Positions 14,494-26,279 of a stretch of 64,000 nucleotides of DNA are shown here, piece after piece (within the stretch, counting starts at the first letter, position 1; the number at the start of each line of letters is the position of its first letter). The stretch covers positions 3,162,001-3,226,000 of the forward strand of contig NW_024704760.1 in NCBI RefSeq assembly GCF_018977255.1, given 5' to 3'. The position numbers and the translations under genes are program-made. The notes beneath the pieces are model-generated. The model had not been told where the DNA came from and did not search any database. It saw only the letters and a list, made by a program, of their open reading frames with translations. Source of the DNA: Callorhinchus milii (lineage: Eukaryota).

Positions 14494-17188
14494 ATGATGA
14501 CTTTTGGTAGTTCGTTCATCCTGGTCGCAGTCTCGGTGCTTCTGGCTCAGCCCTTGGCTGCAGATTGCAGAATGTTACACGTTGGACAATGTTCATTCGT
14601 TGCCAATTTGCATGAAATCAGAGAATATTTCTCAGAAATCAGGAATGCAATAGTAAGTAAAACGCTTATCTATCTCTCTTTTGCGCTCTCTCTCTATACA
14701 TTTTTGTATAATTATCACAATTTCAACAAATTTCTAGGGGTGATGATATATATGTATATATATTTAAAAAGTTAAATATTGGGCGAAACCTTAGGCAAGT
14801 TTCCTTACTCCCCACGCCTCTGTTTACCCAGCAGTAAGTAGGTACCCCGTTGTTAGTCGATTGGCGGATCGCTTTCTGGGGATAATAATCCCTCTCCCCA
14901 AAATATATATACAAAAAAAATAATTTGGGCACTCAATTCATGTGGGACGCTGCTGTGCGCAATTGGCTGCCGCGTTTTGCCCACAAGATATACAGTCAAT
15001 TCCCTTTACAGTATACACTGGGAAGCACTTTGAGACTTCTCGATGACGTGATAAGGCGCTGTATCAAATGCAAGGATTATTATTATACTATATTGAAATA
15101 TGCAAAATAATTGTCTTCACAGCAAGCGGTAGATACCATCACTGACATGCGACTTCTGAACGATGCTACATTTAGGAGCATTCCGGTATGTTACAGCTTC
15201 TGCTTTTAGTTTTTATGTCAATGTTTCTTCATCTAAAGTGAAACGCTTCCCAAAGAAAACCCATGATTTGTTTCATTTATTTGGGAGTTCCTCTCTGTGC
15301 CCTGGCTGCCAAATTCCCCAAATAAAATTCACCTTGTGGCTGTTTTGTTGAACATGGATATGCACAATTTGGCTGCCACTTTGGTCTACAAAATATACAG
15401 TCACTTTACAGTAAATCCTGTGAAGAGCTTTGAGACGACATGAAAAGCGCTGTGTCACATGTAATTATTATTACTGTTATGATTATTACTATAGCCAGCT
15501 TGATTTTTCTATTTATTAACTGAAACGATTGATAAAATTCTTGATTGGCTTCTGAATCGGATTAAGGTCGGCCCCGCTGAAATATCCTTGAGTAACAAGG
15601 AGTTATTTAAGGATATTTCAGTTGATAAATAGAACCGAACGAAGGTCGAGATGTAAATGGCAAAGATCCGTTTGCTTTGCCAATTTTAGTTTCCTTCCCC
15701 TAACCAGAGTGTTTCCTCTCTCATTCATAGGCAGAGGAGAGCTGCTGCTTTCTGAACCATTTGTTGAGATTCTACGTGGAGAACGTGTTCAAACACTACA
15801 CCCCAACCAGCGACCTTATCAAGAGGAAGACGAGCAGCCTGGCTAACTCCTTCCTCAGCGTCAAGAGAGATCTTCGACAGTGTGTAAGTAACAAGACGTA
15901 TTTATGTTTCGAGAGAGAGATTCCAAGTTCATGGGAGAAGATGTTTGACAAACCGATGGAGTTACTGGTCCCACTAATTGAATCTGGAGAAATCCAGTGT
16001 TAGTTATTGCAATATCTAAATGGCAGATCCAATACTTTAATGTGCCGATTGATACCGGCTGATGGTATCACTCCTTAATCAAGTGTAATATTGGATCACT
16101 GCTCTGTGCGCAACTGACTGTCGTGTTTCACCCACAAAAAATATAATAAGTTCACTTTACAGTATATCCTGTGGAGTGCTTTGAGACGTCTCAACAATGC
16201 GATAAGCAGCTTATCAAATGCAACGATTATTATTTCCAATATGGCCAATTTTCTGGTTGTATTTGGCTGTAATCATCTTATATTAAATGTCATTATTTAG
16301 ATGCTTGACTTATGTTGTACTAGAAGTATTCTTCTGTGTTGGTAGATGTAGTAATGATGAGTGGGTTTGCATTGCCTTATTAATGACTACTCATGCGATT
16401 AGAGTGGCTCATTGATCAAACACCACAACCCGCAGGATTTTCTCTCATCACAATGTTCTGTCTTAAACAGCATGCCCAGAGGAAGTGCAACTGCGGGGAA
16501 CAATCCAGAGCTCAGATAAAGAAGATCCAGAACGCATTTGAAATGGTATGTTGGAGACTCGTGTAGAGAAGATAATGTTCAGTTTGCGAGGTGTAGCACA
16601 AAATCTTCCTGAAGCTTAGACTCAGGTTTGCTGCCTCACATTGACCATAATTATCTCTGCCATGTTACTGCACTTTTGGCCAGGCATCTGGCTGGTTCAG
16701 TTGGAGGTTGTGGGTTCAAGCCCACCTCGGGACTTTGAGCCCACGGGCTGACATGCCAACACAGCACCGGGGATAGAGATGGAATGTCGGAGGTCCCTTC
16801 ATTTAGAGGAACCTTTAAACTTGGGGTCTGTTCAGGTTGATGTTGAAAGTCCCATAACATTACTGAGAAATGGAAGAGAGTTTCGCCCGGTGTCCTGGCC
16901 AACAGCCCCTCCGATAAATTTGGCCAAGCACGTCATGGCTGTTTGCAGGACGTTGCTGTGTTCGCCTACAAATACCCAGTTACTACACCTTACAATGAAA
17001 ACCCGCAAAGCACTTTGAGATGTTTTGACGATGTGATAAGGAGTTACATCAAATCAAAAGATTACTGATGATTTGCTCATTGATAAATCTCTGTTTTCCT
17101 TCAGCTGGATCAAAGGGCGGCTACTGTCAAAGCTTACAGCGAAGTGGACATCCTTATACGTTGGATGCACGGATTTCAAAGGAACTGA
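14494..17188 (+). CDS. IL-10-family cytokine, IL-19/IL-20-like paralog A, 177 aa; coding exons 14494-14652, 15123-15185, 15731-15883, 16471-16545, 17105-17188
   Basis: Five coding exons joined by phase-0 GT-AG introns, the typical IL-10-family layout. Signal peptide [25 protein letters not shown]-19/20 cysteine pattern (GQC, SCC, RQC, KCNC); [31 protein letters not shown]-terminal family motif [15 protein letters not shown]19 versus IL20 orthology cannot be resolved by eye. Confidence 0.92.
14780..15088 (+). mobile_element. SINE, older subfamily, in an intron of cytokine A
   Basis: GGCGAAACCTTAGGCAAGTTTCCTTACTCC...CAAATGCAAGGATTATT. Confidence 0.8.
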
Positions 17189-18090
17189 GCATCACCTCTC
17201 AGGGCTGAGCGAGAAGAACAAAGGAAAGCTGAGACGCTGAGAATTGTTTTTGAAAAAAAAAGGCTTTATTTCATAGTTGAATTATTATTGTAAGTTATTA
17301 TATTTATTCTTAATTTAATGCATTAGTTACATTTTGAATTTTGTTTCTTTCTGCCCTCTTCTGTATAACTTGTTATAACCTGCCTTCATTATAAAACTCT
17401 CAGTTATTGTCGCTACAGTACTTTTCATGCTATCAGATTGTTATAAGGTAATCACCACTTGGTATCTGAGAGCTAGTTATATTGAAGGTAGTGCTTATTG
17501 CAGTATTAATTAAGGAATCAACTTCCATTTTGTTGTATTTTAAACATGACATTAGTATTTATGTTTTGCTCATGAAACACGCAGTCACTACACTTTACAG
17601 CGTGTCCCGTGAAGCGCATGGAGATATTCTCCTCAAAGGGGAAAAGGCGCTATACCGAATGCAAGGATTATTATTGTCGTTGTTATTATTTATTATTATT
17701 ATTTATATTTTACTGAAGGCATTTGGAATTAATTTCATGAGACAGTGTTCAAAACTCGAATTTCATGCATGTGTGTGAAAAGGAAGTCTAGTAGGTACAT
17801 ATTGTACAGCTAATTGTTTAGAAGTCGGACTTATTAAAGCAGATTTTTATCGGCATAACAGCGTTTTTTAAATATTTATATGATTTTCATAAATTATTTT
17901 TATCCATTTATTTAAATAATATTATGAATTTATAATGGATTTAATACGTTTTATTTAAAAAGGAAATGTTTTTGATATGTCTTATTTCAAGAGGAAAGGA
18001 AAACATGCTAATTATTCATTGTTGAACTGTGCCTTTGGCAAATATATGTACACTGACGAATCACATGATAATTGAACGCTGACAAATAAA
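17189..18090 (+). promoter_or_regulatory. AU-rich 3' UTR of paralog A with poly(A) signal
   Basis: Many ATTTA motifs (about 17300-17320, 17690-17710, 17870-17960); AATAAA 18085-18090 followed by a GT/T-rich tract. Confidence 0.6.
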
Positions 18091-24238: not shown

Positions 24239-26279
24239 ATGAAGGTTTTCGGTTCGTTCCTCTGCCTGACCATCGTGTCTGTTTTTGTCCTTCAACCTCT
24301 CGTTGCACAAAGCAAAAGGCTGCATTTTGGGAAATGTGCTTTGTCCGTCGACTTACCCGAAATCAGAGAGTACTTCTCAGCAATCAGACAAACAGTGGTA
24401 AGTACAGAATATGCAGTTACTACACCTTACAGCGAATCCTGTACAAGCAATTTGAGTCCTCTGCCTGACGTGAAAGGCTCTGTATCAAATGCAAGAGTAG
24501 TTATTATTGTTAATATTGTGACATACATCAGGGTACACCCCTTCCCATATGTAACTCGCTTTGAATCTAATTATTAGAAAACAGTAATGTAAAATATTAC
24601 AATGATTTTGTCTCAACAGCAAGCGGAAGATGTATCTGGGCACTTGAGGCTCCTGAGTAAATCTACATTTCATGGCATTCAGGTACTGCAAATACCCATC
24701 ATTCTGCTTACAATATAAACACCATCCACTGTGCACTGCTCCGTAATTCAAGTGTTATATTTTGTGGGTGAAACGCGGCAGCCAATTGCGCACAACAATA
24801 TACCACAAAATCCACAGTCGATTCACTTTACCGCATATTCTGTGAAGCGCTTTGGAACATCTGGAATATTAATATTATTATTACCCTCGATTCGGCTTAT
24901 CAGAATATTGTATTGATTTCTCCTTTTCAGGCTGAGGACAGCTGCTGCTTTCTGCGCCACTTGTTGAGATTCTACGTGGAGAACGTGTTCAAACACTACA
25001 CACCAACCAGCGACCTTATCAAGAGGAAGACGAGCAGCCTGGCTAACTCCTTCCTCAGCGTCAAGAGAGATCTTCGACAATGCGTAAGTAACAAGACCGC
25101 ACAGAAGGTCACCTCATGTCCTCAATTGCGCGAAATTAAATTTCATGGGGCAAGCTTTAAAAAAAAAATCTATATAATATATAGGTATAAAATACGGATT
25201 CAGCCCCTCAATAAAATTCTCCCCAACAGTGAGCTTTGCATTCCCTAATGACATTTTGACATAACCCACCCATTGAGGGTTTTAATCTGGAATGAGCCGT
25301 TTTGCAAACGCTTCTTTGGCTGCGAGTGCAGTCTTTCACAATTTAACTTTTTTTTAGTAACGTAAGTGGGAAACCCGGTTGTTAGTCGATTGGCGAATCG
25401 CTTCCTGGGGTAACAATTCACTTTAAAATATATTCTGTGAAGCGCACTGAGAACGTCTCAACGGCGTGATAAGTCGCTATGTCAAATGCGAGGATTGTTA
25501 TTATTATAATTTTCAACATCAGCAAAACATTAAGCCGCGTACTCTGAAATGTTATTGTTCACAATGGCAAGTGTCACATTTATTGCAAAAATCATTTGTG
25601 GTGTTTTTATTACACAGACCTCTGTGACATCTGCTCCTTTGGTTTTTACTCAAGTAGTGATGGGGGTTACATCAGTTCTCATTGTAGTTTGCTTCCTCCA
25701 ACAGCACGCCCATGGTAAATGCCATTGCGGCGAAGATGCCAAAACTCGGATGGACAATATCCAGGAAACATATGAAGAGGTAAGTTGAACCATTTTTCCT
25801 TTCCTGCATTTGGAACACTATTCTCGCAGTGATAAACGCCAACACCAACTTGCATTTATGTAACACCCTTCACACAGCGTAACGTTTCAGAACGCATTAC
25901 ACTTTGTATAGCGCCTTTCACGTCCCAAGGCGCTGGACAGTCAGGGATTTGGACCCGAGCTGGGGGTTGCGATCAGGAAGGGTAGAGGGAAGGGAGGGTT
26001 GGCGTAGGATGACTGAAGAACGCTTATAAAATTCAAGAGAGACAATCTCCTGCAAACAAAAAATAAATCACATTAAATTGACACAAACTAAATACTAGAA
26101 GTGCAACATTAAGAGTGGAGGAAAAACAGAAGATAAGCAATAGCTGATATTTTTGGAGCTTTCACTATAAATTATTAATTCATCAATCTCTTCTTTTTCA
26201 GCTGAATCAGAATGCGGCTGTTGTTAAAGCCATCGGTGAAATCGATATTCTCATACACTGGATGGAAAATTTTGATTAG
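24239..26279 (+). CDS. IL-10-family cytokine, IL-19/IL-20-like paralog B, 175 aa; coding exons 24239-24397, 24620-24682, 24931-25083, 25705-25779, 26202-26279
   Basis: Same exon sizes as paralog A for exons 1-4 (159/63/153/75 nt), all phase 0. Signal peptide MKVFGSFLCLTIVSVFVLQPLVAQS; six mature cysteines; KAIGEIDILIHWME family signature. Confidence 0.93.

Follow-up and report, generated by a model that had tools for sequence, protein, structure and literature searches.

Evidence for recurrent, exon-restricted gene conversion between two IL-20-like cytokine genes of cartilaginous fishes

How can one exon stay nearly identical in two genes that have diverged along the rest of their length? This question is raised by two tandem, same-strand IL-20-like genes of Callorhinchus milii, here called A (14494-17188) and B (24239-26279), which lie in the 64,000-nucleotide (nt) stretch of contig NW_024704760.1 (positions 3,162,001 to 3,226,000; assembly GCF_018977255.1) analysed here and termed the window. 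The near-identity of their third coding exon is very probably the product of recurrent non-allelic gene conversion restricted to that exon, which would have acted in the chimaera and independently in shark and ray lineages. Conversion of exon 3 has likely been repeated over hundreds of millions of years.

Both genes have the architecture of their family. Each comprises five coding exons with open frames and GT-AG phase-0 introns, and encodes 177 (A) or 175 (B) amino acids; five coding exons and phase-0 introns are stated for IL-19/20/24-type genes in the accessible part of PMC12652433. Named C. milii IL-20-like proteins reproduce the exon models of A and B, with exon 3 of A 100% identical to one such protein and 96% to a second. 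The Pfam family IL10 (cut-off 24.2 bits) is matched by P0001, part of A (39.6 bits), and by P0016, a model of B (29.1 bits), while P0002, a model without exon 4, falls just below the cut-off (24.1 bits); single exons alone gave no Pfam match. The fold was compared on the whale shark protein P0006 (alignment A2), standing in for the window's own proteins. Its structure model (predicted local distance difference test score, 78) has helices at residues 75-96 and 102-129, with exon 3 covering residues 75-125, and its top structure matches were 4DOH, 1N1F, 6GG1 and 6DF3 (sequence match E 9e-38; template modelling score 0.79-0.90 to IL-20). Exon 3 is thus predicted to encode helix C, the CD loop and most of helix D, in the conventional lettering, and the two central helices and loop of this model agree with the assignment made in a preliminary description of the locus.

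Inside the window, the silent sites of exon 3 carry the argument. Amino acid identity between A and B across exons 1 to 5 is 26/53, 9/21, 49/51, 10/25 and 15/25, and the number of synonymous substitutions per synonymous site (dS) is 1.31, 0.82, 0.18, 0.46 and 1.12. At an offset of 9200 nt, segments 15761-15897 and 24961-25097 differ at 3 of 137 nt, all in third codon positions and synonymous (15802, C/A, Thr; 15880, G/A, Gln; 15883, T/C, Cys). Codons for identical residues differ at 5 of 49 sites in exon 3 vs 26 of 57 in the other exons (Fisher p 8e-5), and 17 codon differences would be expected in exon 3 after adjustment for its bias in third-position GC content (GC3), compared with the five seen (p 7e-5). 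The preliminary description had given the per-exon counts and the three silent differences, all of which were reproduced, and had argued that selection on the protein alone would not keep silent sites this close; the dS and codon comparisons bear this out. Divergence is higher in the opening 30 nt of exon 3 (5/30 differ vs 3/123 in the rest; Fisher p 0.008), suggesting tracts of different age. At seven exon-3 positions (18, 23, 26, 28, 31, 33 and 44) the chimaera carries residues not found in the shark and ray consensus, and A and B use the same codon at all seven. GC content at synonymous third positions (GC3s) is 38/51 (75%) in each exon 3 vs 57/119 and 55/120 (46-48%) in the remaining exons of the two genes (p 0.001 and 0.0007), an excess that GC-biased conversion would give; raised GC is taken as a supporting sign of conversion in the part of PMC2720389 available. 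Beyond exon 3, the longest exact matches between A and B are AT repeats, pieces of short interspersed elements (SINEs) and one 15-mer in the 3' untranslated regions (UTRs). Exon 3 differs by 21-25% between chimaera and sharks but by 4% between A and B, while the flanks of A and B differ from each other about as much as they do from sharks; constraint alone is therefore insufficient to explain the identity.

Independent evidence comes from other cartilaginous fishes. Homologues were collected by a profile search (the best 120 of 215 matches) and cluster look-ups, and two IL-20-like genes, X and Y, were found in nine sharks and rays. Pair statistics left out fused (P0017, P0030, P0034) and truncated (P0083) models and records that are isoforms or additional copies (P0015, P0016, P0020, P0130-P0133); species in which a single gene was found (P0019, P0026, P0031, P0036) entered only the flank and exon-3 trees, and P0004 was trimmed at its intron read-through and used without exons 4 and 5. 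In the flank tree (mature exon 1 and exons 2, 4 and 5), X and Y are split with support of 95/97, with sharks and rays on each side, so that the duplication is older than the speciations compared among sharks and rays. The exon-3 tree, in contrast, rejects an X clade and a Y clade in the approximately unbiased (AU) test (0.012 and 0.011), as well as A+X and B+Y groupings (5e-5 and 6e-5). The X-Y distance in exon 3 is 0.098 within species vs 0.140 between species across the nine pairs (0.092 vs 0.158 with the chimaera added), and 0.450 both within and between species in the flanks. Without exchange, this distance should be equal within and between species at any rates, which makes the exon-3 gap unexpected. 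The gap persists on removal of any single species (0.032-0.047), and none of 2000 simulations without conversion (4 x 500) reached the observed value (largest gap 0.019-0.024 vs 0.042 seen); these used flank branches scaled by 0.35, the analysts' choice, which gave an X-X distance of 0.099 vs 0.109 observed. Under three null models not fitted to A-B closeness, 11-14 amino acid differences are expected between A and B in exon 3, and two or fewer occurred in 0, 0 and 1 of 500 runs. When the nine pairs are permuted, p is 1e-5 in exon 3, compared with 0.5-0.8 in exons 1, 2 and 4, though, as species are not independent, the flanks and simulations are the better control.

The same pattern is visible residue by residue. 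Sites that group by species outnumber those that group by gene in exon 3 (13 and 2 of 51), with the reverse in the flanks (9 and 40 of 102). Among the residues that the two genes of a lineage have in common are V11 in sevengill shark, I11 in sawfish, Q2 and N27 in catshark, P28 in batoids, R21 and M30 in skate, N47 in sawshark and L11 in bamboo shark, besides the seven in the chimaera. The exon-3 pairs of the ten species differ at 2-10 residues each, none being identical. The Y gene of small-spotted catshark (P0031) has X-type residues at positions 35-36, which its cloudy catshark counterpart (P0025/P0028) does not; this likely reflects a recent X-to-Y tract within one genus. The skate Y cluster (P0033) holds four near-identical records, three of them on contigs of 8-50 kb, which are either extra copies or unplaced haplotypes. 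Overall, the per-exon protein trees and distances in nine further species, with the raised GC3s, uphold the proposal of gene conversion made from the window alone.

Judged from the flank tree, the X/Y pair predates the shark-ray split, which took place ~270-300 million years (My) ago; chimaeras and sharks separated ~400-420 My ago. Whether there was one duplication or two, A and B split at about the time that chimaeras and sharks did. The best tree joins A with X and B with Y in two analyses, with an independent duplication not rejected (AU 0.12 and 0.19), and a mixture model that includes signal peptides places A with B (support 40/51, stem 0.014). A fused bamboo shark model, P0017, has the 5' half of X and the 3' half of Y, from which X is inferred to lie upstream of Y, as A lies upstream of B. 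The possibility that gene A is itself a chimera of an X 5' part and a Y 3' part, prompted by its exon 4, received no support from trees of the gene halves.

As the preliminary description had noted, the introns cannot otherwise be aligned: the best local alignments of introns 1-3 between A and B fall on SINE fragments, which are not counted as retained homology. A-B identity extends 14 nt into intron 3 and then ends abruptly, and this 14-mer occurs exactly twice in the window. Its first 6-7 bases follow the donor consensus (intron 1 also shares seven), leaving seven informative bases with a chance probability of ~7e-5. The extent given in the preliminary description was thus reproduced; its weight as neutral evidence is lowered, since a bamboo shark X model that reads through the donor has V-S-N-K-D where the chimaera reads V-S-N-K-T. 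The tail is perhaps conserved in a shark, in which case it is no neutral marker of conversion. That comparison comes from one degenerate read-through, and a search for short read-through fragments from other species found none. Older SINE fragments occur in every one of A's four introns and in three introns of B.

Several results weigh against recurrent conversion, or limit it. The evidence from sharks and rays consists of protein sequences from automated gene models. Exon 3 is the most conserved exon of the family (73-84% identical across other jawed-vertebrate matches; distance to single-copy outgroups 0.25-0.37 vs 0.52-0.67 for flanks), which weakens the argument from bare identity. The shark and ray signal is confined to positions 1-33 (2.44 differences within vs 4.35 between species) and nearly vanishes at positions 34-51 (2.56 vs 2.79), where X and Y keep gene-specific residues. 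A fixed tree grouping all elasmobranch exons 3 by species is 31 log-likelihood units worse than one grouping them by gene (p-AU 0.078 vs 0.93), the sawshark pair differs at 10 of 51 positions, and, of two tests for a within-species signal in exon 5, one is weakly positive (p 0.033) and the other is not (p 0.19). None of the orthology alternatives for A/B and X/Y is rejected (AU 0.12-0.47). The intron-3 tail may be conserved across species in its own right, and alignment of the two 3' UTRs extends over ~250 nt, including an island of 22 of 23 shared nt (17788-17810 and 26719-26741), so that short non-coding identity survives outside exon 3 too. Lastly, contigs confirm only 15850-15897, in two of four runs. 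The restriction to positions 1-33 and the failure of the by-species tree to do better indicate that homogenization is partial and patchy, as short tracts would leave it.

Among the alternatives, an artefact, in which one exon 3 was collapsed, mis-joined or cross-polished or the annotation is in error, is the least credible and can be almost entirely discounted. In public sets, gene models frequently show breaks or fusions around exon 3 (P0003, P0004, P0017, P0083), and the 5' two thirds of the exon lie outside contig coverage. Contigs from region 15850-16100 were obtained from two of four runs (X3 and X4, none from X1 or X2), all of one study that may include the window's source. Each of these two runs has a pair of contigs starting at 15850, 30 nt before 15880, one continuing into intron 3 of A and the other, which differs at two letters, into that of B; both exon-3 3' ends thus sit on their own introns and are not assembly products. 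In addition, the pairs of all ten species differ, by 2-10 residues, and an assembler would confuse only copies already alike. A scenario without exchange, in which selection preserves in both genes a regulatory or splicing element made up of exon 3 and the start of intron 3, is very improbable. The bamboo shark read-through V-S-N-K-D fits the chimaera intron start, the 3' UTR island is retained in both genes, and the predicted fold of exon 3 is slightly better than that of shuffled sequence (z -1.7; donor z -0.1). Exon 3 differs by 8-17 amino acids between chimaera and shark, showing that its DNA is not frozen between species, and constraint predicts no within-species excess, whereas the excess seen is ~8 standard deviations above the simulated null. 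No Rfam family matched at exon 3 or at the intron-3 donor. Such constraint may explain the intron tail alone. Equally hard to sustain, and marginally more so, is the idea that both ligands converged independently at the amino acid level in each lineage while tracking one receptor: the shark and ray evidence is protein only, and easy changes are among those shared (M/L/V/I at 11, K/R at 21), but in the window shared residues have identical codons and silent sites are homogenized, and the GC3 excess is not predicted.

A different kind of alternative accepts conversion as the mechanism and asks what sustained it. Conversion may have been favoured by selection, carrying receptor-matching changes into both ligands and keeping their IL-20RB face in step while the faces for the other receptor chain (R1) diverged; this is plausible enough to weigh but remains the less likely account, and it is ranked below a homology trap tolerated by selection. 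Putatively, from family membership, A and B signal through IL-20RB with IL-20RA or IL-22RA1. In the accessible text of PMC10361524, Lys135 and Leu117 of IL-24 hydrogen-bond IL-20R2, and Tyr204 touches both chains. By hand mapping, with the offset inferred from residues, Lys135 corresponds to exon-3 position 32 and Leu117 to position 16, which likely places much of the R2 face in exon 3, although Tyr204, also an IL-20R2 contact, falls beyond it; the mapping supports the view of the preliminary description that exon 3 contributes to this surface, with part of the surface lying elsewhere. Position 32 is invariant across the cartilaginous-fish set, the location of the tract recurs among lineages, and IL-20RA/B homologues are reported for C. 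milii (PMC12652433, in part); a shared-partner argument is also made for TLR1/TLR6 (PMC2077338) and called speculative for BMP8A/B (PMC2720389), as far as the available parts of these papers go. Other results speak against selection as the driver. At positions 35-36, a helix turn away from position 32, X and Y keep different residues, the only lasting contrast between them in exon 3, and exon 3 is also the most conserved exon in comparison with single-copy outgroups, which could alone keep it convertible. The preliminary description saw divergence of the R1 face in KAYSE of A as opposed to KAIGE of B. KAIGE is present in 22 of 22 shark and ray proteins, X and Y alike, and KAYSE (17132-17146 region, exon 5) only in gene A, so that these motifs do not support divergence of this face between paralogues, though KAYSE, a gene-A-specific change in the last helix, may alter R1 binding. 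Receptors and functions of fish IL-20L are listed as uncharacterized in PMC4929537, as far as its available text shows. A stronger version would have one duplication at the base of cartilaginous fishes and unbroken concerted evolution of a single exon for >400 My, selected so that the IL-20RB face shifts in both cytokines at once, and a conserved element in intron 3 would set the 3' edge of the tract. This is improbable as a whole; if true, the lineages would serve as natural replicates of ligand-receptor co-evolution, and conversion on the scale of an exon would have lasted unusually long here.

For recurrent conversion tolerated by selection, the following sequence of events is proposed. After duplication, the introns would have turned over through SINE insertions, and exons 1, 2, 4 and 5 would have diverged past the homology needed for ectopic conversion. 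Exon 3, 153 nt long and the most constrained, would have stayed alike enough to convert, and every conversion would have restored the similarity on which a later one depends. Such events would be tolerated by selection if the C/D helix core, and probably the set of IL-20RB contacts, must be the same in both proteins; tracts running over gene-specific residues (35-36 in galeomorph sharks and 46-47 in batoids) would be removed. The high GC3 of exon 3 would be explained by GC-biased repair of heteroduplexes. An active benefit for ligand-receptor co-evolution is possible in this scheme but not required.

The features of both genes are collected in Table 1. Upstream of the first coding exon of A (13486-13641) and of B (23505-23623), there is a TATA-like box (13577 and 23529), a donor site (13637 and 23619) and a kappa-B-like site, which together suggest an inducible promoter and a non-coding first exon. 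AU-rich motifs occur in the 3' UTRs of both genes. In fold predictions, the 3' UTR island has a lower stem that carries a 5-bp stem closed by a UAU loop, with folding z as weak as -0.5 and -1.1; the shape resembles Roquin/Regnase-1 decay elements. Alleles in runs X3 and X4 differ from the window at 15904 and 16026 (intron 3 of A) and 25105 (near the start of intron 3 of B). A search of sequencing runs with exon 3 returned seven matching runs under one organism code, with no RNA run listed, and was uninformative on expression or other species.

Table 1. Positions of the coding exons, conversion tracts and shared non-coding segments of genes A and B in the window.
Feature	Position	Strand	Evidence
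Gene A coding exon 1 (signal peptide and first helix)	14494..14652	+	gene model; N-terminus of P0003
Gene A exon 2	15123..15185	+	gene model; P0001
Gene A exon 3 (predicted helix C, CD loop, most of helix D), homogenized	15731..15883	+	100% to P0001
Gene A exon 3, 5' part, more diverged; both amino acid differences	15731..15760	+	
Gene A, probable freshest conversion tract; 134/137 identical to B; perfect cores of 41 and 77 nt	15761..15897	+	
Gene A intron-3 start common to A and B, 14 nt (7 past donor consensus)	15884..15897	+	
Gene A exon 4	16471..16545	+	gene model; P0001
Gene A exon 5 and stop, private KAYSE motif	17105..17188	+	gene model
Gene A 3' UTR island common to B; predicted 5-bp stem, UAU loop	17788..17810	+	
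Gene B coding exon 1	24239..24397	+	gene model; P0002/P0016
Gene B exon 2	24620..24682	+	gene model; P0016
Gene B exon 3, homogenized	24931..25083	+	gene model; comparison with A
Gene B, probable freshest conversion tract; 3' end joined to B's own intron	24961..25097	+	contigs, runs X3 and X4
Gene B exon 4	25705..25779	+	gene model; P0015
Gene B exon 5 and stop, KAIGE motif	26202..26279	+	gene model
Gene B 3' UTR island common to A; same predicted stem-loop	26719..26741	+	

Elsewhere in the window, tblastn found no further exons of the IL-10 family, which, at the sensitivity of this search, leaves no IL10 gene in the 14 kb upstream. The downstream neighbours, arranged head to head, are ATP synthase subunit b (29953-30294, minus strand; Pfam PF05405) and WDR77/MEP50 (34094-34291, plus strand), which in human are not known to be adjacent to IL10/IL19/IL20. 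A long proline-rich coding exon or exons, with no Pfam match, lies at 47599-49775 on the minus strand, where open reading frames (ORFs) 47599-48876 and 48609-49775 apparently overlap, and a tandem repeat of ~1 kb with purine/pyrimidine skew (60850-61870) gives rise to long spurious ORFs. Counting short tail matches, there are 51 merged SINE-like loci in the window; young tRNA-derived copies, 94-97% alike, lie at 18971-19301, 32108-32420, 55629-55938, 63180-63497, 7361-7579 and 8607-8834, with a tRNA match at 19225-19296 inside one SINE copy.

The locus offers a replicated system, with at least 10 species pairs and one 153-nt exon with sharp edges, that bears on why segments of paralogues keep converting over hundreds of millions of years, whether through selection for a shared partner or through a self-renewing homology trap. 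If the receptor link is true, the case would show how two ligands can keep up with a single receptor chain with no need for compensatory changes in each one separately. There are also practical consequences. Trees built from whole proteins of shark IL-19/IL-20-like genes combine two different histories, and caution is needed with public gene models, which break or fuse at exon 3: bamboo shark P0017 joins exons 1-3 of X to exons 4-5 of Y, and others (among P0004, P0083, P0003 and P0002) read through into intron 3 or skip exon 4. Errors of annotation, collapsed copies, or an allele or transcript that is truly hybrid could lie behind such models.

Compared with known cytokines, A and B have their best sequence and fold matches in human IL-20, IL-19 and IL-24 (4DOH, 1N1F, 6DF3) and teleost IL-20L, whose five exons and phase-0 introns they share; they are nonetheless a cartilaginous-fish pair, and not one-to-one orthologues of IL-19 or IL-20 by any test made. 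In paralogue pairs of alligator and paddlefish, unlike A and B, exon 3 is by eye not shared between the paralogues. No report was found of conversion between IL-19/20-like genes of cartilaginous fishes or in IL-10-family cytokines, in a literature search for which paywalled papers and supplements, such as those of the elephant shark genome paper, were beyond reach. In the portions available, PMC6640115 mentions concerted evolution for type I interferons only, and PMC12652433 traces IL-19/20/24 homologues only to gar and does not contain the word 'conversion'.

Conversion between paralogues has several precedents, described here from the accessible parts of the sources. Mammalian TLR1/TLR6 are, like A and B, tandem immune paralogues with one region closer between paralogues than between orthologues, converted independently in many species, with a shared partner proposed as the reason (PMC2077338); there the region spans ~300 amino acids of a receptor, compared with one 51-codon exon of a secreted cytokine between unalignable introns. 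BMP8A/B, DDX19A/B and TUBG1/2 resemble A and B in comprising two copies with mosaic homogenization in every lineage, raised GC and an unproven purpose, and show low dN/dS (the non-synonymous rate divided by the synonymous rate) in the converted part (PMC2720389). For those pairs a homogenized intron was required and conversion has run for >100 My (PMC2720389), whereas intron homogenization in A and B is limited to 14 nt at most. Short non-allelic conversion between paralogues under one pressure is also seen among newt Nav paralogues and duplicate exons (PMC8476164), where it is tied to named adaptive substitutions, of which none has been identified in A and B. The mechanism is thus already known. 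The present case stands out in being limited to a single exon, in recurring across cartilaginous fishes and in its age, the X/Y pair being older than ~270-300 My, and >400 My if the chimaera pair stems from the same duplication.

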